Below are positions 14,184-59,812 of a stretch of DNA of 64,000 bases, piece by piece. Numbering within the stretch: the first letter of the stretch is position 1; every line of letters begins with the position of its first letter. The stretch lies in NCBI GenBank assembly GCA_015055665.1, contig SVHX01000001.1, forward strand, positions 135,365 to 199,364, given 5' to 3'. A program made the position numbers and the translations under genes. The DNA is from Clostridiales bacterium. Its GTDB lineage: Bacteria; Bacillota; Clostridia; Christensenellales; UBA1242. The notes beneath the pieces are model-generated. The model was not told the DNA's origin, searched no databases, and saw only the letters and a list, made by a program, of their open reading frames with translations.

Positions 14184-15589
14184 ACATTGATATCTCCTAT
14201 AATTATTCGACTATCATTATTTTCTTTGATAACTGTATCTATTGGCTTGCCAGTTTCCTCAGCAATAATTTCCATTACCTTCATAAAACAGAATCCGCCT
14301 TGACAACGCCCCATACCAGCACGAGTTCTTCTCTTAATTGCATCCAAACTTCTTGGCTTTAGTGGCGAATTAATGGCGTTAATTATCTCCATTTCGCTTA
14401 TATTCTCACACCTACATACTATTTTGCCAAATCGCTTATCCAATTTAATTAAGTCGTTAATTTGCTCTTCTGTCTTTGCTTGAATAGTAGGACGCTCAAC
14501 TCTCTTTTTCATTGGTTTTTCTTGAGAATTCTCGTGAAGAATATCTGCCACATAATCCGCAATAGCAAAGCACGAACTCAACCCTGGCGAACAAATTCCT
14601 GTAACATTAAGAACGTTACTATGATTAGCATCTTTCTCAATAACGAAATCAGAGCCCACCACACATCTCACTCCAGCAAATACCCTAATATTTGATTTCA
14701 GATTCAAGTTATCAAGCATATTATCAGCCTTTAGAGCAATGTCTTGCAGTCCATCTCTGGTGGTTTTTGGAGAACTATCTTCATCAACAATTGACGTAGG
14801 GCCAACTATTACATTTCCGCTAGTAGTAGGAGATACAAGAACACCCTTACCATCCCTTTTGCTAGGTATTGGGAATATTGTCAGTCCATTAATATCTAGC
14901 GAGCCTTTATCAAGTAAATAATATTCACCACGTCTAAATACAATATCGTATTTCTTTGTATCAAAGATGCTAGCTACTTCATTGTGCGAATTACCAACCG
15001 CAAGAACAACTTGTTTACCAACAAACTTCTCATTATTCCCACTTATCTCTACCCCTTGCTCGGTATAATTCACATTATTAATTTTATAATCAAAGACAAC
15101 ATCCGCTCCATTAATTACAGCCTCTTCTGCAAGAGCAATTGTTAACTTGTATGGCGAAACAATAGCACTTGTCTTTGCATAGAGAGCATACTTTATATCT
15201 TCGTTAATATTAGGACATAGCTTGCGTAATTGAGTGTGATTGATAATCTCTAGACCATCTACTCCGTTTTTCTGTCCACGTTTGTATAGCTCTTCCATAA
15301 CACTCTTGTCATTTCCAACAACTATAGCACCATTTTTTACATAAGGTACAGACAGTTCCTTGCATCTTGCCTCAAAGACTTTAGCACCTTTTACATTAAG
15401 AGTTGCCTTTAACGTGCCCGGCATTGCATCAAAACCAGCATGGACAATTCCACTATTGGCCTTACTTGTTCCTACTGCTACATCAGAACCCTTCTCTATA
15501 AGTAGGCACTTTTTATTAAGGCGAGTAAGCTTATTAAGTATAGAACACCCTATTACTCCACCACCAACAATTATATAATCATATATCAT
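14180..15589 (-). CDS. FAD-dependent glycerol-3-phosphate dehydrogenase/oxidase-like protein with a BFD-like [2Fe-2S] domain
   Basis: 469 aa. [14 protein letters not shown] fold and a C-terminal CRCENIS...[10 protein letters not shown] motif. Divergent from glpK. Confidence 0.75.
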
Positions 15590-18739: not shown

Positions 18740-18914
18740 CTCTTGTCTTGCTTATATTCTATCACAAAATATTTTTTTTGCAAAAAAATTTGTATATGAT
18801 ATTTCTTATTCAAGATTAAATTGTTAAATTAACATTATTTGGAACAATATAATATATAATATTAATTGTTAACGATATGTATAGTCAAAATAATATTAAG
18901 AAATTTAACACAAA

Positions 18915-18946
18915 TACTTTACTTAACGAAATTAATGTGTTATAAT
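18915..18946 (+). promoter_or_regulatory. candidate promoter of the tRNA-Cys/tRNA-Leu unit
   Basis: Extended -10 TGTTATAAT (TATAAT at 18941-18946) with TTTACT-like -35 about 17 nt upstream. It lies 18 nt before tRNA-Cys. Confidence 0.5.
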
Positions 18947-18964
18947 GATTTTGTTCTTAAGTAC

Positions 18965-19039
18965 GGCACCATAGCCAAGTGGTAAGGCCCGGGTCTGCAA
19001 AACCCTCATGCCTCAGTTCGAATCTGAGTGGTGCCTCCA
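18965..19039 (+). tRNA. tRNA-Cys (GCA), CCA encoded
   Basis: Hand-folded. Acceptor GGCACCA/TGGTGCC, anticodon loop CTGCAAA, T-arm CTCAG-TTCGAAT-CTGAG, 3' TCCA. Confidence 0.9.
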
Positions 19040-19046
19040 ATATAAA

Positions 19047-19076
19047 TAGTAGCCTATCCTGTAAGATAGGCTACTA
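19047..19076 (+). other. 12-bp perfect hairpin between tRNA-Cys and tRNA-Leu (no T-run)
   Basis: TAGTAGCCTATC-ctgtaa-GATAGGCTACTA. Confidence 0.6.
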
Positions 19077-19084
19077 ATATATTC

Positions 19085-19171
19085 GCTGGTGTGGCGAAAT
19101 CGGCAGACGCACAGGACTTAAAATCCTGCGGAGTAACATCCGTACCAGTTCAAGTCTGGTCACCAGCACCA
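19085..19171 (+). tRNA. tRNA-Leu (TAA), long variable arm, CCA encoded
   Basis: Acceptor GCTGGTG/CACCAGC, anticodon stem CAGGA/TCCTG with loop CTTAAAA, T-loop TTCAAGT, 87 nt. Confidence 0.9.
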
Positions 19172-19517
19172 CATAAAGCAAACGTTCTGTTTGCTTTTTT
19201 GTTGCTTTGTGCATAGACTTTATGTACTTACGTACATTGCGAGCTTTGCTCGCGAACTGGTACTCGTACCTGTATTGGCTTTCAGCCAAACTTGCAATTT
19301 ATTCCCAGAATCATTGCTGCGCCATGTCTGGTCACCAGCACCACATAAAGCAAACGTTCTGTTTGCTTTTTTTGTTGCTTTGTGCATAGACTTTATGTAC
19401 TTACGTACATTGCGAGCTTTGCTCGCGAACTGGTACTCGTACCTGTATTGGCTTTCAGCCAAACTTGCAATTTATTCCCAGAATTATTGCTGCGCCAAGT
19501 CTGGTCACCAGCAGCCA
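19154..19517 (+). repeat. tandem 172/173-bp repeat (2 full units plus a terminal 19-nt copy), each unit bounded by the last 18 nt of tRNA-Leu
   Basis: GTCTGGTCACCAGCACCA occurs at 19154, at 19326, and with one extra G at 19499. The sequence between copies is near identical. Each unit has a terminator (AAGCAAAC-GTTCT-GTTTGCTT plus T6/T7) followed by 4-5 short perfect hairpins. Confidence 0.9.
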
Positions 19518-19559
19518 ACTAACCTTACAACAACTAACTAATTATTTCAAAAAACAGTA

Positions 19560-19588
19560 TTGACATCATTAACGCACAATGTTAAAAT
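19560..19588 (+). promoter_or_regulatory. sigma-A-type promoter of orphan paralog 1
   Basis: TTGACA (19560-19565), 17 nt, then TGTTAAAAT (TAAAAT at 19583-19588). Confidence 0.6.
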
Positions 19589-19625
19589 ATTGTTACAAAT
19601 AAATTTCTTTAGGGGTTAATAAATT

Positions 19626-20168
19626 ATGCAAGACAACAGAAAGAAATATATAGATTTTTTGGCAAAACGCAAGAAGAATTGTTACCAATTTATTACAGAT
19701 ACATTACTTAATGAGGAATCTCAAGACAACCTTAGTGTTCAATATAAAAACTGGAACACAGATGTTAGCAGCGCATCAATTCATTTCGATTTCAAAGTAT
19801 TCAATACATCTAAGCATTTTGGCAGAATAGCTAATGGATTTGCAATTCTTAATGCTTTTAGTTGTGATATTGGGATGACATCTTATGACAAGATTGAATC
19901 ATTTACAGAACATATCCGCAAAGAATATGGACAATTTATATATAATTTAATCAAAGAGGCAGAATCACAAGGAGCTACAACTCTAAGTAGCAAACAATAT
20001 TTAGAGGACTATAACGATTTCCACCGCTTTGTTCGTGACTCGAAAGTCACCTCAGCTCAGAAAGAGTTCAAAGAAAAATACGAAAAAATTGCTAAAGATT
20101 ATTCAGATATTAAATTATCTGCAGATGCTCCTGCTGACGAAAACAACGCCAGAGAATCTACTTTATAG
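19626..20168 (+). CDS. hypothetical protein, orphan paralog 1
   Basis: 180 aa with an AGGGG RBS. Clearly paralogous to the next gene: YIDFLAKRKKNCYQFITDTLL vs YIRFLDDNKLKCKKFIAETIL, and EYGQFIYNLIKEAESQGATTLSSKQY vs EFGTFVYNLIKSDQDKGETELNSEQY. I recognise no family. Confidence 0.7.
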   Translation: MQDNRKKYIDFLAKRKKNCYQFITDTLLNEESQDNLSVQYKNWNTDVSSASIHFDFKVFNTSKHFGRIANGFAILNAFSCDIGMTSYDKIESFTEHIRKEYGQFIYNLIKEAESQGATTLSSKQYLEDYNDFHRFVRDSKVTSAQKEFKEKYEKIAKDYSDIKLSADAPADENNARESTL

Positions 20169-20186
20169 AATAGTAGATTCTTTTTC
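20153..20186 (+). terminator. intrinsic terminator overlapping the stop of paralog 1
   Basis: AGAATCTACT-N9-AGTAGATTCT followed by TTTTT. Confidence 0.65.
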
Positions 20187-20210
20187 TATAAACATTTTTT
20201 AAGAAGGGTA

Positions 20211-20239
20211 TTTACAACCGCTATAACTTATGCTATACT
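20211..20239 (+). promoter_or_regulatory. sigma-A-type promoter of orphan paralog 2
   Basis: TTTACA (20211-20216), 17 nt, then TATACT (20234-20239). A GGGAGGGA RBS precedes ATG 20277. Confidence 0.55.
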
Positions 20240-20276
20240 ACATGTACTTACATAATTATGGGAGGGACATAACACA

Positions 20277-20822
20277 ATGGAACATAGTAAGGATTATGAG
20301 CAATACATTAGATTTTTGGATGACAATAAACTTAAATGCAAGAAATTTATAGCAGAAACAATATTAGAAAACAGACCGAATAATAATCGCAAGGTGTTAT
20401 TTAGCAATTGGTCTACTAACCACAACTTAACAGACATTGCATTTGAATTTAAGATTGTTGACAATAATTACCATAGGATATCGTGTGGTTTTGGCTGTTT
20501 TACCCCAGTAGAACTTCAATTAATTTTTAGAGATGGTGATGGACCACTAACAAAGAAAGTTTATTGCTACGATAAAGAATTTGGCACTTTTGTGTACAAC
20601 CTTATTAAAAGTGATCAAGACAAGGGAGAAACAGAGCTAAATAGCGAACAATACAGAAGATTGTACAACAAAATTCAAGACGAATATTATATTAAATTAG
20701 CAGAAGAAGCAAGACAAGATTTTGAGAAAAAACTACAAGGAATTTCTTTGCGTCGTGCAAATGCTTATTTATTCCCTGATGGTCTAGAATCTCCATTTGG
20801 TCCAGAATTAAGTGATAATTGA
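20277..20822 (+). CDS. hypothetical protein, orphan paralog 2
   Basis: 181 aa with a strong RBS. Paralog of 19626-20168. Confidence 0.7.
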   Translation: MEHSKDYEQYIRFLDDNKLKCKKFIAETILENRPNNNRKVLFSNWSTNHNLTDIAFEFKIVDNNYHRISCGFGCFTPVELQLIFRDGDGPLTKKVYCYDKEFGTFVYNLIKSDQDKGETELNSEQYRRLYNKIQDEYYIKLAEEARQDFEKKLQGISLRRANAYLFPDGLESPFGPELSDN

Positions 20823-20886
20823 TATAATCCATATATGATAATGAATAAATATTAGACAACTTGTATCATTATACAATGTATTGCAT

Positions 20887-20920
20887 AAAAATAACTCACA
20901 ATATATGTGAGTTATTTTTT
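20887..20920. terminator. bidirectional terminator between paralog 2 and the acyltransferase gene
   Basis: ATAACTCACA-atata-TGTGAGTTAT flanked by an A-run and a T-run. Confidence 0.65.
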
Positions 20921-20924
20921 ATAA

Positions 20925-21677
20925 TCATATCCCCTTCTCACTCTCAACAAGCTCCTCTTCTTGTTCAAAAGAGAGTTTGCCAAGTTCATTACATCTATCA
21001 CATAGCTGTTGAGATATTTCTTCCTTGGTGAGCCCCTTAGAAAATAATTCAGAAAGCATAATAGGTTTATCTATAACATAAGTTCTAGTTGACTTCTGAT
21101 AATAAGCCACATAGATTGGAACATCCATATCCTTCTTCTGACACATATTACAAAGCAATGTAAAACCAGCATGAAAGCCCTCTAACTCATCAAGATAACC
21201 CTTGGACGAATCTTCTGGGAATATTATAATATTCTGATTATCTTCAAGTGCTGCAAGGCTTTCGTTAAGAGTAGTCCTTAATTTGCCTCCACGATATACA
21301 GGAATAAGTCTTAACCCTCTATAGAATATAAATGTTAGAGGAGTAGCAAGAAGACAGAATAATCTAGCTGCGAATAAATTCCAATGTTTCTTCTCATGAT
21401 AATATACTCTTGTCTGATATTTATATAGAGTAAATATATTAGAATTCATCTCATACGCACCCCAGAACCTTATGTTTTTGCAAGGACCGTATAACTCAAA
21501 CGCTAGAGGAGCAGATGTTCCTACATGATTACTAAGAATTATTCCTCTATCTCCAAGCTCCTCACCTAGGAAAACAAACTTACTCTTCTTAATAAATATC
21601 CGCATAATCTTTTTTAGACCCCTAAACCACGCCTTACGATAATGCTTAGGCTTATCTGTTCTTACATTTTTTGCCAT
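20925..21677 (-). CDS. lysophospholipid (PlsC-type) acyltransferase family protein
   Basis: About 250 aa from ATG 21677 (GAGGTG RBS; the track ORF starts at 21704). Has an NHVGTSAP-type HX4D-like region and FPEDSSKGY (FPEG-like box) typical of glycerolipid acyltransferases. Confidence 0.6.
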   Translation of the reverse strand: MAKNVRTDKPKHYRKAWFRGLKKIMRIFIKKSKFVFLGEELGDRGIILSNHVGTSAPLAFELYGPCKNIRFWGAYEMNSNIFTLYKYQTRVYYHEKKHWNLFAARLFCLLATPLTFIFYRGLRLIPVYRGGKLRTTLNESLAALEDNQNIIIFPEDSSKGYLDELEGFHAGFTLLCNMCQKKDMDVPIYVAYYQKSTRTYVIDKPIMLSELFSKGLTKEEISQQLCDRCNELGKLSFEQEEELVESEKGI

Positions 21678-21946
21678 AACCACAACACCTCGAATTAAAT
21701 ACACTAAATTACTAACAACATATATAGAATTACTATATACTTTATTGTAACATAGTTCGATAAAAAATCAAATAAAAGTACACTAAATTATATGATTGCA
21801 ATTAAGAATTAATAATATCAATGTAAAAATTGATGCTAGACAAACAAAGATATCTTTTTGAATAATTAAATCAACCTATATACATGACAGCCTTACAAAG
21901 CACATCAACCTAACAGTCAAACGCAAAATATAAATTTTAATTTAAT

Positions 21947-22258
21947 ATCACGCCAAGTGATGCGAACGCCCTCGCGCTTCGCACGAGTACACGCGTCGCG
22001 AGTTCCTATGTGATAACATAGACATTACGTAGTAATGGGAATCTCGTCTGCAAGCCACAAAAAAAAGCACCATACGGTGCTTAATTATTGGAGCGGAAAA
22101 CAGATTCGGTGCCGAGCATCACACCAAGTGATGCGAACGCCCTCGTGCCCCGCACGAGTACACGCGTCGCGAGTTCCTATGTGATAACATAGACATTACA
22201 TAGTAATGGGAATCTCGTCTGCAAGCTACAAAAAAAGCACCATACGGTGCTTAATTAT
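21947..22258 (-). repeat. tandem 170/171-bp repeat (2 units) directly downstream of tRNA-Gly; unit 1 ends with a degenerate copy of the tRNA-Gly 3' end
   Basis: TGGAGCGGAA (complement of the tRNA 3' end) occurs at 22259 and again at 22089, extended by a degenerate T-arm copy. Each unit, read on the minus strand, has terminator AAGCACC-GTAT-GGTGCTT plus T7/T8 and then a hairpin chain. I see about 6 substitutions and 1 indel between the units. Confidence 0.9.
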
Positions 22259-22333
22259 TGGAGCGGAAGACGAGATTCGAACTCGCGACATTCGCCTTGG
22301 CAAGGCGACGCTCTACCACTGAGCCACTCCCGC
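22259..22333 (-). tRNA. tRNA-Gly (GCC), CCA encoded
   Basis: Minus strand GCGGGAG..CTTGCCAAG..GCGAGTTCGAATCTCGT CTTCCGC T CCA. The cloverleaf folds by hand. Confidence 0.9.
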
Positions 22334-22398
22334 AAATTTAGGCTTAATAAGCCTCGTGTTATAGGAACTATTAAATCAACATGGTTAATTTAATAAAA

Positions 22399-22474
22399 TG
22401 GTGGGAGTTATAGGGCTCGAACCTATGACCTCCTGCTTGTAAGGCAGATGCTCTCCCAGCTGAGCTAAACTCCC
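22399..22474 (-). tRNA. tRNA-Val (TAC), CCA encoded
   Basis: Minus strand GGGAGTT TA GCTC AGCTGGGA GAGC .. CTTACAA .. ATAGG TTCGAGC CCTAT AACTCCC A CCA. Confidence 0.9.
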
Positions 22475-22508
22475 ACACTGCTTCGTACTTCCTATTTAGT
22501 ACTTTATT

Positions 22509-22537
22509 AATATACCAAATATTTTAGAATTTTGCAA
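22509..22537 (-). promoter_or_regulatory. sigma-A-type promoter of the tRNA-Val/tRNA-Gly unit
   Basis: Minus strand TTGCAA (22532-22537), 17 nt, then TATATT (22509-22514). It lies about 35 nt upstream of tRNA-Val. Confidence 0.55.
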
Positions 22538-22742
22538 CCCTTTTTTGCAACTTTTTTAAAAATTTTTTAATATTTTTAATTACAATATTATTTAAACACG
22601 CAATACACGCTTAATTTAGGCTTTTTACAAACATAACATACAAATAAAAAACCTTAAAAATTAAATTGTATAATGGTAAAGTCTATATATAATATCATAC
22701 AAAACAATTTTTAAGGTTAATCAAAATGTGAAACTAGGCTAA

Positions 22743-56497: not shown

Positions 56498-59400
56498 TTA
56501 TTCTGCAATAACATATGTAAGATTTGTGTAATATGGTAATACTAATTGTAAATTAGGATTATTTAATTCATTCATAGGAACTGTAACGGTATCGCCAGAG
56601 CCATCGGTTGCTGTTAATGTAACATTTTCATCATACTCTAACATATAGATAAATTGCCTTAACATAAATCCGACAACAGAAGCTCCAATTTCACCATTAT
56701 CATATACATAAATTTTACCTTGTGGGTAATTATTTCCTTCCTTCATCAACCAAAACTCAGTGTAACCATTAAGAACATGTGGCTTCAATGTATAAGTTTG
56801 AATAGGTTCAGAAAAGGTTGTATCTGAACTATCATATGTTGTAACAGTTGTTCCATCTTCTGAAAATTTGAAAATTGGATTATTTGCTAAAACAAACTCT
56901 CTATAAACACTTTTTAATGCTGTTTTTGCACCTTCAACTGAACTTATCTCAGTTACACCTGTTATTTCTTTCATCAAGTCAGTATTGTAATATGCATCAA
57001 TAAATTCGCCTAATGTCATTTCAACACTATAATCTTTATTTCCATCATTATAAGTAGATGAGAAAGATTTATATTCTATCCAATCCAAATCAGCAATTTG
57101 ACCAATTACCAATGTTTCACCTGATAAATCTGCTGGTTCTGCTGTATAGAATCTTATTCCGTATCCAGTATTATGAGCAACACCATCAATAGCATCATCA
57201 CCGGAATCCTGTATAAACCACTCCATACCATCGTTAGCTGTAAAGATTATTCTCATATCATATACAAAATCATTAAATGTTGTTTCGGCTGTAAGTTTTT
57301 CATAACTACTATTTGAATATCTTATTGCCCAAGAAAATGTTCCAAATTCGCTTGTAGGCAAATTAGGAAGATAAGCTACCTCACTAAATTTTTGACCTTT
57401 TGCGAATAACAATCCACCATACTCATATGTGTCTGATTGTTCTACATAATTATCAAGTTCAAATAATGTTCCAACATAGTCATCAAGTTCAAAATATTGT
57501 TTTGGGAAAACTTGCATAGGTATATACAATACAAAATCTTCATAACATTCATCACCTGGTTTTGTAATCTTAATACAGAAAATTCCAAGTGGACTTGTTT
57601 CTGTATTTTCATCAACTTCAAAGGTAATAATATTATCTTTAAATGTTCCTTTACCTGTTGTTACAGTTTCAGTATTAGGAATTGAATTAACAACTTCTAA
57701 AATAATAGGAGATTCTGAACCATAATAATAACTATCATTATCATACTGCTTTTCCATAATAACTTTGCTTAGGTCAACAGTTTTATCGCTTCTTACTATA
57801 ACATCTATGTCATCAGATTCTTCAAGTGTAGTGTCATTGTGGTCTACAATACAAGGATTTTGCTCTGTTTTAAGAATTTCAAATAAGAATACTCTAGCAC
57901 CTGTACTTAAATCATCTTCCCAAATTGTGCTTTTTCGATTTTCTAAATCATACATAACAACATAGATGCCTGGTGTATGAGTTTGTTTCCAATCATCTGG
58001 TATAACATCATTTCTTGTATAAGAGTCTTTTTCGCCTTGTCTAATCTTTTCTATTAAGTCAGATTTATCTAACTGACCAGCCCTATACGATTCAACTTCT
58101 GCATCAGTTAATTTATAGTGATAAGAAGCAACACCATCTTCTAAATTGTGAATATAGAAGTCATAATTTCCATTTGCCTTATAACTAAGCTGAACAGGAC
58201 AATTAAATTGTTCATAGCATTTATTGTCTTCTTCGCCATAATAAGGAACACCAATTTGTTTATATTTTATTCTATAATTAAAACTAATATCTGATGAAGA
58301 AACTTTGTTATTATCATCATAATTTACCCATGCATGATTTGGATTCTTTAATCTTAAATATCCTTGATGATAACCTACTTCTGTTTCATCTGCATTGATA
58401 AATTCAAACAAATCAATATTATTGTATAGATTAAATGAGTCTTTTATTTCGTGAACAAAACTTCCACCTCTATAAGTAAATTCAAAACTATTATGACCAA
58501 CAACAATACCTTCATATGCAATATGCTCAGCTTGTGGAGTATGTTCAAGAACCCATTTGTTTAATGTAATATAAGTTTTAAATATTTTAGAACAATCATA
58601 ATGGGATTCATAAGTTGAATTTACATCTTCACTAACCATATAGTTAACAGGAATTTTAATTGAAGTTCCATCAATATATGACTGAATTTTTGTATATTCA
58701 ACATATTCAATTACTTCATCACCTGTTAAAGCTTCACCTCTTGTTCCATCAGTGTTAACTTTATACCAACCACTACCGTAATAATCAACTAATACATACT
58801 TATCAAGCTCTTTTATAGCATTAACCTTTAATGTATCAAAACTTGATTCAAAATCTACAACACCCCATTCAGAGCCATTATAAGCATAAAAATCAACTTC
58901 TGTAATGTGATTTACTAAATCAATTTCATAGTCGATACAATTATAAAAGGCACTTTCATAACTAAAATTACCAGAATCTTTTGAAAAATTATGTTCATAA
59001 GGATGAGCGTTTTGTTCAATTACGGCATCAACAATATTTATTGTAGCATAATTATAAATATAACCTTCTTCGCCATATTTATAATAATCTGAATCTGACA
59101 TCCACGCAAAGACATAATATGTGCCAGGTTCTTCTTCTAATGCTTCCCAGGTAGATGCTGACAATTGTTGAATATATTCTTTCTTTGCTTGTTCTGTTTC
59201 TAATGCATCATAGACGCTACGTTCAACATGATAGAAAAACTCAATTCCACTATATCCTTCTTCAACGCCTGAAAGCACTAGTTTGTATTGAGCGTCTGGA
59301 TTTGCCTCGTCATAATTTCTACTATTATAATGCCACTGTATTGTTGCATTACTAGTAGTTCCACCGTAAGGAGTTTGAATTTGAACACGAGTATTTGGGT

Positions 59401-59812
59401 ATTGACTTTTTCCTATATTAACATAAAACAACAAATTTGCATTATCATTTGTTAATCGAAATGTATACCCAGTAGGTAAATCATTAACCGTTGTTCTTTC
59501 TGTCCAGAAATTAGGCAATGTTGTTTGTTCTTCACTATTCTCATCATACCAAGAAACGCTTAACTCAAAATCCGTGATAGGAACAAATGCATTTTTACTA
59601 GAATCCGACCAATCACTTTTTATACGAATATCATCAGCAGTAATTGCATTATTACCATAGACAGTCTCAAAATAAGTCGTTTCTTCGCCTTTGATATATA
59701 AGGTATAACCATTTAATGTTGGTTCAGTTTCACTACCACAAGCACTAAATAAAAATGCACATGGTAAAATAAAACATAAAGATAACATAAATGTTAGAAT
59801 TTTCTTTTTCAT
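56498..59812 (-). CDS. large predicted surface lipoprotein (1104 aa), function unknown
   Basis: Signal peptide MKKKILTFMLSLCFILPCAFLFSAC-GSE with a lipobox-like FSAC. The remainder is acidic and Y/N/T-rich, with recurring PGxYxV-type beta-sandwich-like strands. No recognised catalytic motif. Confidence 0.7.
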   Translation of the reverse strand: MKKKILTFMLSLCFILPCAFLFSACGSETEPTLNGYTLYIKGEETTYFETVYGNNAITADDIRIKSDWSDSSKNAFVPITDFELSVSWYDENSEEQTTLPNFWTERTTVNDLPTGYTFRLTNDNANLLFYVNIGKSQYPNTRVQIQTPYGGTTSNATIQWHYNSRNYDEANPDAQYKLVLSGVEEGYSGIEFFYHVERSVYDALETEQAKKEYIQQLSASTWEALEEEPGTYYVFAWMSDSDYYKYGEEGYIYNYATINIVDAVIEQNAHPYEHNFSKDSGNFSYESAFYNCIDYEIDLVNHITEVDFYAYNGSEWGVVDFESSFDTLKVNAIKELDKYVLVDYYGSGWYKVNTDGTRGEALTGDEVIEYVEYTKIQSYIDGTSIKIPVNYMVSEDVNSTYESHYDCSKIFKTYITLNKWVLEHTPQAEHIAYEGIVVGHNSFEFTYRGGSFVHEIKDSFNLYNNIDLFEFINADETEVGYHQGYLRLKNPNHAWVNYDDNNKVSSSDISFNYRIKYKQIGVPYYGEEDNKCYEQFNCPVQLSYKANGNYDFYIHNLEDGVASYHYKLTDAEVESYRAGQLDKSDLIEKIRQGEKDSYTRNDVIPDDWKQTHTPGIYVVMYDLENRKSTIWEDDLSTGARVFLFEILKTEQNPCIVDHNDTTLEESDDIDVIVRSDKTVDLSKVIMEKQYDNDSYYYGSESPIILEVVNSIPNTETVTTGKGTFKDNIITFEVDENTETSPLGIFCIKITKPGDECYEDFVLYIPMQVFPKQYFELDDYVGTLFELDNYVEQSDTYEYGGLLFAKGQKFSEVAYLPNLPTSEFGTFSWAIRYSNSSYEKLTAETTFNDFVYDMRIIFTANDGMEWFIQDSGDDAIDGVAHNTGYGIRFYTAEPADLSGETLVIGQIADLDWIEYKSFSSTYNDGNKDYSVEMTLGEFIDAYYNTDLMKEITGVTEISSVEGAKTALKSVYREFVLANNPIFKFSEDGTTVTTYDSSDTTFSEPIQTYTLKPHVLNGYTEFWLMKEGNNYPQGKIYVYDNGEIGASVVGFMLRQFIYMLEYDENVTLTATDGSGDTVTVPMNELNNPNLQLVLPYYTNLTYVIAE

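Follow-up and report, generated by a model that had tools for sequence, protein, structure and literature searches.

Directly behind the tRNA-Leu(UAA) gene in a 64,000-nt stretch of the genome of an uncultured gut Clostridial bacterium (contig SVHX01000001.1, positions 135,365 to 199,364; hereafter the window) lies a tandem array of units. Each of them has an intrinsic terminator followed by a GC-rich module of hairpins, and ends in a repeat of the last 18 nt of tRNA-Leu. A preliminary description of this DNA had offered three readings of the array, namely a miniature tRNA-targeting element mobilized in trans, a structured RNA co-transcribed with or processed from the tRNA, and a collapsed island remnant; it had missed a second array behind tRNA-Gly(GCC) on the minus strand. 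On the evidence of their sequences, we class both arrays with the tRNA-linked repeats (TLRs), though without sequence relation to those of Escherichia coli. A structured RNA made with or from the tRNA is most likely, and we favour it because the fold covaries, the units keep a fixed orientation behind their cognate tRNA, they have no promoter of their own and their architecture resembles that of RtT and the TLRs. The miniature element and the island remnant found no support, and the units do not look like an integration scar. More specifically, we consider it fairly probable that they are Clostridial analogues of the E. coli TLRs, that is structured modules of the 3' trailer of tRNA operons, built in part from the tRNA gene and expressed by read-through.

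Two arrays of tRNA-linked units

By using Tandem Repeats Finder, we found a period of 173 bp at 19151-19513 (2.1 copies, 97% matches), in an array that starts 4 nt after the end of tRNA-Leu. The 15-mer GTCTGGTCACCAGCA from the 3' end of this tRNA occurs at 19154, 19326 and 19499, with 0.01 matches expected from shuffled sequences. The copy of the tRNA end is identical at 18/18 positions in the first Leu unit and consists in the second of the 18 nt with one inserted G (GCAGCCA). These positions and the extra G are those given by the preliminary description, and so are the differences between the units (T6 vs T7, ATCATT vs ATTATT and CCATG vs CCAAG). We could also confirm that an intrinsic terminator follows each of the first two tRNA ends, as terminator-like hairpins with T-runs at 19175-19197 and 19347-19369, that all the palindromes named earlier are present, and that the block is more GC-rich than its surroundings (0.46-0.47 in the units against 0.30-0.37 in the adjacent kilobases). 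One Leu unit has a folding energy of -50.5 kcal/mol, better than that of its shuffles (z -3.6). A coding role was rejected for the 116-aa open reading frame (ORF) at 19191-19541: since 173 is not a multiple of 3, the two units are read in different frames, and homologous units keep the hairpins, not the codons. Therefore the ORF is an artefact of the repeat, as had been suspected for the ORF calls in the array.

The second array, on the minus strand at 21947-22279, adjoins tRNA-Gly directly and has a period of 171 bp (1.9 copies, 94% matches). Its design is like that of the Leu array, with a terminator, GC-rich hairpins and a diverged copy of the tRNA-Gly 3' end (..CGAATCTGTTTTCCGCTCCA). In the first Gly unit, 10 nt of this copy are exact (TTCCGCTCCA), inside a diverged copy of 27-28 nt.

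A common fold derived from the cognate tRNA

Leu and Gly units share a fold in which the terminator hairpin is followed by a closing helix and a multi-hairpin core. The closing helix is formed by the segment after the T-run (the arm) pairing with the terminal tRNA fragment; four to five short stem-loops lie inside it and the CCA stays unpaired. The Gly unit also folds better than its shuffles (z -2.6), and most of the 13 units folded from other species share this pattern, with z from -2.4 to -6.9 (mononucleotide shuffles).

Much of the unit derives from the tRNA next to it. First, the arm repeats the T-stem and acceptor 3' strand of the tRNA as their reverse complement; in the case of Gly the match is exact, between the arm GACGAGATTC and GAATCTCGTC in the T-loop and T-stem of tRNA-Gly. 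Second, further pieces of reverse-complement tRNA lie inside the module (GTACCAGTTC in Leu and GTCGCGAGTTC in Gly units), and two of the hairpins are inserted at about T-loop position 57|56 of the antisense tRNA copy. Third, when the reverse complement of the module was aligned locally with its own tRNA, 9/10 Clostridial units were significant, at most 6/300 shuffles reaching the score; the E. coli rtT unit gave z 6.3 in the same test, and the sense-strand control gave mostly no signal above shuffles. Antisense similarity of at least 10 was found downstream of 14/69 tRNAs vs upstream of 4/69. Just 5' of the fragment, Leu and Gly units have in common the motif CTGCACC, which does not come from the tRNA. 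By this motif, the units at different tRNAs are related, though each has the ends of its own tRNA; the overall architecture is common to them as well.

The design in related species

We examined 80 loci from metagenome-assembled genomes (MAGs) of uncultured Clostridia/Christensenellales from the ruminant, rabbit and human gut, in a scan anchored on a FakA-like gene, and probed each of the 67 tRNAs of those loci with its own 3' end (L numbers designate loci and contigs). Units of this design occur behind tRNA-Leu, tRNA-Gly or tRNA-Ser in at least 11 related Christensenellales-like MAGs, with one to three copies per locus. Copies of the tRNA end were found 150-390 nt downstream of tRNA-Leu in L030, L037 (two units), L038, L040 and L052, of tRNA-Gly in L037 (three units) and L062, and of tRNA-Ser(UGA) in L032 and L062. 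When further loci were read directly, L029, L030 and L032 proved to have Gly units as well, and L029, L036 and L041 Leu units. The usual order is gene end, first terminator (T1), module, gene-end copy and second terminator (T2), the terminator behind the last fragment being present in most species and having a differing sequence, not that of a copy, in L029, L030 and L038. Fragment and arm track the tRNA of their own species every time (TCCGGTCTTCGGCA in L040, ..TTTAGCA in L052, ..TTCAGCA in L038). Copies of fragment plus terminator are identical within species and different between species (L040, L052), and the duplicated block of L040, of about 78 bp, runs through the whole terminator. Four close relatives (L028, L033, L051 and L061) have the terminator only and no unit.

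Hairpins at matching positions have unrelated sequences in the different species and keep their pairing. The first Gly hairpin, for example, is CATTAC-TAT-GTAATG in the window, ACATGTTC-TAGC-GAACATG in L030, TATAGAC-TAAC-GTCTATA in L037 and ATGTTGTC-AAAT-GACAACA in L062. As these hairpins have no sequence in common, MAFFT with RNAalifold misaligned them in the Gly units, and covariance-model alignments were used. A model built from the two Leu units of the window alone (R1) matched the Leu units of L036 (48.6 bits, E 8e-11) and L030 (44.9 bits), and over its full length the Gly units of L037 (27 bits) and of the window (22088-22229, 26 bits, E 1e-6). A second model (R2), run over 1.32 Mb of related genomes, gave 14 matches with E < 0.1, all of them directly behind tRNA-Leu or tRNA-Gly; a match in L034 (E 0.2), in a coding region, was discarded as a false positive. 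No other copy of the unit was found elsewhere in the window, nor away from these tRNAs in the 1.32 Mb searched with R2.

In an alignment of 6 units with 2 weak chance matches, 93.7% of the cells were paired against 72.1% after shuffling, and 29/45 pairs had changed on both sides (0/500 shuffles). With 15 units, the corresponding values were 88.6% and 61.6%, with 36/45 pairs changed on both sides (again 0/500 shuffles). The four main internal hairpins of the 15-unit alignment were paired in 98.9%, 97.6%, 100% and 88.7% of cells, compared to 28-45% in slid controls. The preliminary description had proposed to look for the unit in other genomes, for covariation and for copy-number variation among strains: the unit does occur in other genomes, always directly behind tRNAs at E < 0.1, covariation is present, and copy number varies, as described below for the strain alleles. 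All of these outcomes, and the lack of a prophage attP match, speak for a functional element.

Some loci carry variants of the design. A second subtype of Leu unit (L038:2800-3110; L040:12743-12930; L052, minus strand, below 11981; L041:14516-14620) has a fragment of 48 nt, from the anticodon stem to the CCA, and its module opens with a long hairpin that holds antisense and sense copies of the anticodon arm (AGGATTTTAAGTCC..GGACTTAA..); in L038 there is an internal triplication of 96 nt. Mirror-image '5'-linked' units lie upstream of tRNAs (L030:12300-12430; L032:13090-13215; L028:15890-16010; L032, minus strand, upstream of 19701). Upstream of tRNA-Gly these are two tandem 66-bp units, each opening with the first 11 nt of the tRNA and also holding its anticodon-loop region, and upstream of tRNA-Ser the units consist of the first 18 nt of the tRNA, hairpins and the reverse complement of the D-arm (GACCGCTC). 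A Christensenellaceae MAG at greater distance (L073:16251-16399; 50% FakA identity) also has a terminator and two hairpins behind tRNA-Leu, the hairpins sitting between antisense T-arm halves, and its contig ends inside this sequence. Judging from L073, the family may be broad in the order.

Alleles within the species

Same-species metagenome contigs were retrieved by exact-protein look-ups. First, the Leu array has two units in the window, L001, L009, L012 and L013, one unit in L014 and L016, and zero units in L004. Second, the Gly array has either two units or one (L010, L024, L025 and L026), the one-unit form being without the copy of the tRNA fragment. Third, the one-unit alleles are hybrids, with a 5' part like unit 1 and a 3' part like unit 2, as may be expected from unequal homologous recombination and also from assembly collapse. 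Copy number varies between species and probably between strains.

The zero-unit allele departs from the window sequence inside the acceptor 3' strand of tRNA-Leu, and looks like an allelic replacement or a loss of units anchored in the tRNA. This contig (L004, 1-400, reverse strand) is 99% identical upstream and has a C-to-T change in the acceptor 3' strand and no unit; its terminator differs and resembles that of species L036, and its downstream gene is also different. An apparent 34-bp deletion in L011 was discarded, as it is a scaffold gap of Ns. Many short-read contigs of this species end inside or at the edge of the arrays (L001, L002, L003, L005, L006, L009, L013, L015, L017 and L022): metagenome contigs of these organisms end at these tRNA loci because the repeats break assemblies.

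Comparison with known tRNA-linked repeats

As the counterpart in E. coli we took the tyrT-tyrV repeat, confirmed on the E. coli sequence: a 178-bp unit is present there 3.1 times and closes each time with the final 19 nt of tRNA-Tyr, and the Rfam RtT model (RF00391) has four matches of 133-138 bits at the locus. In the RtT consensus, a closing helix of GGGGAAGGAU with the fragment AUCCUUCCCC surrounds the internal hairpins and leaves ..CCACCA unpaired. E. coli K-12 has 22 tRNA-linked repeats at ten loci, one to five per locus, in tRNA and rRNA operons, and their hallmark is an identity of 18-19 bp to the 3' end of the upstream gene, either tRNA or 5S (Stenum et al. 2021, PMC8144298). The E. 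coli TLRs have been known since 1978 (Egan & Landy 1978; Rudd 1999), but their tRNA-linked members have no known function, and an early stringent-response claim for rtT was retracted (all as summarised in PMC8144298).

The arrays of the window share these features. Both lie immediately downstream of a tRNA in its operon; the identity to its 3' end covers 18 nt in the Leu units (with one inserted G in the second), is partial and diverged in the first Gly unit and is absent from the second Gly unit; and their copy numbers (2.1 and 1.9) and unit lengths (173 and 171 bp) are within one to five copies of about 150-180 bp. Like the TLRs and RtT, they have units of about 170-180 bp in one to five tandem copies, a copy of the tRNA 3' end that includes CCA, a 5' arm complementary to this fragment that closes a multi-hairpin core, reverse-complement tRNA segments in the interior, and related units at different loci, every one ending like the tRNA in front of it. 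They differ first in their host, uncultured Christensenellales-like Clostridia instead of Enterobacterales, and in the tRNAs concerned (Leu(UAA), Gly(GCC) and Ser(UGA)). Second, an intrinsic terminator opens every Clostridial unit, whereas the tyrT repeats are without one. Third, some Clostridial species have 48-nt fragments or mirror-image upstream units. The Rfam RtT model (RF00391) had no match in 18900-22550 even at E <= 10, where apart from the tRNAs the Rfam matches were chance ones only, and R1 scored at most 7 bits on the E. coli tyrT locus. In the library searched, the papers that use the term tRNA-linked repeats report no such elements outside Enterobacterales.

A published precedent for expression comes from the E. 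coli repeats rrA, rrB and rrF, which lie behind 5S rRNA between T1 and T2. They are made when transcription reads through T1, undergo processing, and in vitro are bound to Hfq and CsrA (PMC8144298). Their order of gene 3' end, T1, module of about 150 nt, 18-bp gene-end copy and T2 is also that of L029, L030, L037, L038, L040, L052 and L062, and their 3' end has been mapped beside the repeated sequence. In contrast to the Clostridial units, they follow 5S rRNA and are single, not tandem; they bind Hfq and CsrA through GGA motifs, whereas no such motif pattern is evident in the Clostridial units. A tRNA trailer of E. coli, 3'ETS-leuZ of the glyW-cysT-leuZ operon, acts as a sponge of small RNAs (cited in PMC8144298). 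It is likewise a functional RNA from the 3' trailer of an operon that ends in tRNA-Leu, but it lies upstream of the terminator and is short, unstructured, unrepeated and without mimicry of a tRNA end.

Features of the window

The coordinates of the arrays and of their tRNA operons are collected in Table 1. Their neighbourhood is one of core housekeeping genes, namely hslUV, trmFO, topA, dprA, thrS and glpK, with the FakA-like gene, priA, ligA, pcrA, the dnaK operon and lepA as further neighbours. The two arrays converge, with 2.4 kb between them that hold three ORFs, none of which had a match in Pfam, NCBIfam or PADLOC. These ORFs (19626-21704) are two paralogues of about 180 aa and one of 250 aa. 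Related species differ in how the Val-Gly and Cys-Leu tRNA pairs are ordered and oriented, so that the region between the tRNAs is a hot spot of rearrangement. A perfect 13-bp hairpin (19047-19076) fills the spacer between tRNA-Cys and tRNA-Leu; L037 has a hairpin of other sequence in this spacer (15245-15290), and in L030 and L036 the spacer is of 3 nt only. Elsewhere in the window, an ORF of 1104 aa (56498-59812) had no Pfam or NCBIfam match.

Table 1. Positions in the window of the Leu and Gly arrays and of the elements belonging to them.
Feature	Position	Strand	Basis
Promoter-like site of the tRNA-Cys/tRNA-Leu operon	18918..18946	+	TTTACT-17-TATAAT with TG
tRNA-Cys(GCA)	18965..19039	+	ARAGORN, Rfam
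tRNA-Leu(UAA), CCA encoded; last 18 nt (19154-19171) copied in each unit	19085..19171	+	ARAGORN, Rfam
Terminator T1, copy 1 (AAAGCAAAC-GTTCT-GTTTGCTTT and T-run)	19175..19200	+	Hairpin and T-run
Leu unit 1, module; tRNA 3'-end copy at 19326-19343	19201..19343	+	Fold; full-length match of R1/R2
Leu unit 1, 5' arm complementary to the tRNA 3' end	19203-19218	+	Fold
Leu unit 1, five stem-loops	19222-19237, 19239-19253, 19256-19273, 19275-19289, 19294-19317	+	Fold, pair list
Terminator T1, copy 2 (T7 run)	19347..19373	+	Hairpin and T-run
Leu unit 2, module; tRNA-end copy with inserted G at 19499-19517; no terminator after it	19374..19517	+	
tRNA-Gly(GCC), final gene of the Val-Gly operon (tRNA-Val 22399-22474)	22259..22333	-	ARAGORN, Rfam
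Terminator behind tRNA-Gly (AAGCACC-GTAT-GGTGCTT and T-run)	22230..22252	-	
Gly unit 1, module: arm GACGAGATTC, hairpins, diverged tRNA-Gly 3'-end copy (22089-22108)	22089..22229	-	
Gly terminator, second copy	22059..22082	-	
Gly unit 2, truncated: arm and hairpins without terminal tRNA fragment	21947..22058	-	Partial R1 match 21926-22037

Discussion

The points that speak for a sense RNA are the fixed orientation of the units behind the tRNA, the T-runs oriented for sense transcription and the lack of promoter-like sites inside or directed into the arrays. Between the promoter-like site at 18918-18946 and position 19560 there is no other such site on the plus strand, thus none inside the Leu array, which leaves the one in front of tRNA-Cys as the only plausible source of sense transcription into it. 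From this strong tRNA promoter, read-through of the terminator would transcribe the module. The arm and the terminal fragment would then form an interrupted helix of about 12 bp with a CCA tail, mimicking the acceptor/T-stem stack of a tRNA, and the machinery that matures tRNA ends could leave, after trimming, a discrete and protected RNA some 145 nt long. In such trimming, 3' exonucleases would stop at the CCA and RNase P would perhaps act at the 5' side, a fate comparable to that of the E. coli rrB repeat between its two terminators. Arrays would grow and shrink by unequal homologous recombination between units, and gene conversion with the adjacent tRNA would keep the copies of fragment, arm and terminator matched.

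Several observations weigh against a trailer RNA of this kind. In neither array of the window is the last unit followed by a terminator, and the terminal tRNA fragment is absent from the distal Gly unit as well as from the single-unit Gly allele. The alignments used for covariation were fitted to the model, with about seven species contributing; the closing helix is their weakest part (70-80% paired in the 15-unit alignment), and its double changes are automatic, because both of its sides copy the tRNA. The stems are about 92% Watson-Crick, with 6 G-U vs 4 A-C cells, and folding of the opposite strand is equally good or slightly better (mean -58.5 vs -54.2 kcal/mol), which is compatible with constraint on the DNA or on the opposite strand. 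The one-unit alleles rest on short-read metagenome assemblies, which are prone to collapsing tandem repeats. Since each unit opens with a good terminator, expression could be very low, and since there is neither sequence nor model homology to RtT, the analogy with TLRs may reflect convergence.

Among the other explanations, the one that survives best, though we hold it to be unlikely, is that the units are neutral by-products of DNA metabolism. Template switching during replication at the palindromic T-arm would produce partial duplications of the tRNA end, both inverted and direct, the hairpins would be DNA palindromes without a role as RNA, and unequal crossing-over and gene conversion would amplify and homogenize the units. 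The almost purely Watson-Crick stems fit this view, with no strand asymmetry and both strands folding equally well, and the identity of fragment-plus-terminator copies within species along with their divergence between species (L040, L052) points to concerted evolution. The units are also patchy among close relatives, the four with a terminator only being without them, and the tRNA-linked TLR members of E. coli have no demonstrated function (PMC8144298). However, the species compared are at 88-92% protein identity, and neutral intergenic DNA should not hold four hairpins in place while their sequences turn over. Moreover, flanking direct repeats should quickly delete a useless segment, yet units persist behind three tRNAs in many species, and the CTGCACC motif and the architecture common to Leu and Gly units also argue against neutrality.

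We find it improbable that the terminator is the selected feature, two to four stacked terminators behind a very strong tRNA promoter insulating the downstream genes and the module being a passenger or a spacer. A terminator copy is indeed present in every unit, the one behind the last fragment in most species has another sequence in three of them, and E. coli rrn operons are arranged as T1-repeat-T2 (PMC8144298). But such insulation leaves unexplained the hairpin architecture, the complementarity of arm and fragment and the copy of the tRNA 3' end, and both arrays of the window end without a final terminator.

Attachment (att) sites classically show themselves as direct repeats of a tRNA 3' end, and tRNA-targeting integrases are known to use the T-loop as a crossover sublocation. 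A remote tyrosine integrase acting at the T-loop could thus have left miniature integrative elements or a decayed att remnant, each unit resembling a non-autonomous cis-mobilizable element (CIME) flanked by attL and attR. The likeness to att duplications and CIMEs goes beyond the direct repeats that flank a segment: about position 56, in the T-loop, is where the fragment begins and also where the antisense tRNA copy is broken, and with both break points in the T-loop a recombinational origin keeps some probability. In addition, strain L004 diverges from inside the tRNA-Leu 3' end onward, and gene order around these tRNAs is rearranged between species.

We nevertheless regard an att origin as very improbable. 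As had been noted from the sequence, the 64-kb window holds no integrase: none of the 48 ORFs scanned across it matched an integrase or recombinase family in Pfam. The unit had no blastn match in phages and plasmids, and viral scans with the tRNA-Leu 3' 21-mer and with a Gly-unit pattern gave none either; the prophage attP match that the preliminary description had named as the mark of an ordinary remnant was found in none of the phage, plasmid and viral collections. Scans with exact patterns of the Leu unit were also negative in genome-contig, metagenome-contig (two patterns) and viral-contig collections, an absence that says little, since JGI contigs do contain the Leu unit and the scanned collections simply lack this organism. 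Unlike att duplications and CIMEs, the units have no foreign cargo, the DNA between the tRNA-end copies comes from the tRNA in front and has been kept behind the same tRNAs in different species, and the repeated block includes the terminator, often spanning it whole as in L040, which is not the case of an att core. There are no dispersed copies (R2, 1.32 Mb), and a 172-bp circle is an implausible substrate. As for occupied and empty sites, there are alleles with two, one and zero units, of which the one-unit alleles are hybrids, compatible with homologous recombination or assembly collapse, and the zero-unit L004 also differs in its terminator and downstream gene.

That the product is made from the opposite strand, either as a pseudo-tRNA-like RNA with expanded loops or as an antisense RNA running into the tRNA gene, is hardly credible. 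On that strand the module reads as sense tRNA-like sequence with hairpins inserted in the T-loop, and folding is slightly better. However, downstream of the two arrays no promoter-like site is directed into them, the genes flanking the Leu array point away from it and those at the Gly array have its direction, the T-runs of the terminators face sense transcription, and neither ARAGORN nor the Rfam tRNA model recognises such a product. R1 scores of 13-16 bits vs about 180 also go against this strand, a comparison that is trivial by construction.

Four further candidates were rejected. A transposon like a miniature inverted-repeat transposable element could account for the inverted repeat formed by arm and fragment, but all 14 model matches are directly behind tRNA-Leu or tRNA-Gly. 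Against a tRNA- or tmRNA-like gene, ARAGORN and Rfam recognise only the four genuine tRNAs, and against a T-box-like sensor, UGGN occurs only where the sequence is tRNA-derived. Finally, a cis-regulator of the downstream gene is not consistent with downstream genes that differ between species.

Returning to the trailer RNA, the closing helix that mimics an acceptor end, the compensatory changes in the hairpins and the presence of each tRNA's own ends in units at different tRNAs together suggest that the design is selected or repeatedly generated by a specific mechanism. Annotators of genomes should thus not take every duplicated tRNA 3' end for an integration scar. TLRs have been treated as enterobacterial in the literature searched, and a family unrelated in sequence but with the same hallmark is now found in a distant phylum; it offers comparative material for finding which parts of a TLR matter. 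A bolder proposal, to which we give a low probability, is that of a clade-wide family of tRNA-templated modules that would move between tRNA operons by swapping the antisense arm and the sense 3' fragment for those of the new neighbour, with mirror-image versions at tRNA 5' ends. Their RNAs would act on the cognate tRNA, or on the machinery that matures or charges it, through mimicry of the acceptor end and antisense complementarity. If this is true, TLRs would be a widespread functional class and not an E. coli curiosity, and the family would indicate a new copy-and-retarget mechanism with the T-loop at its centre.

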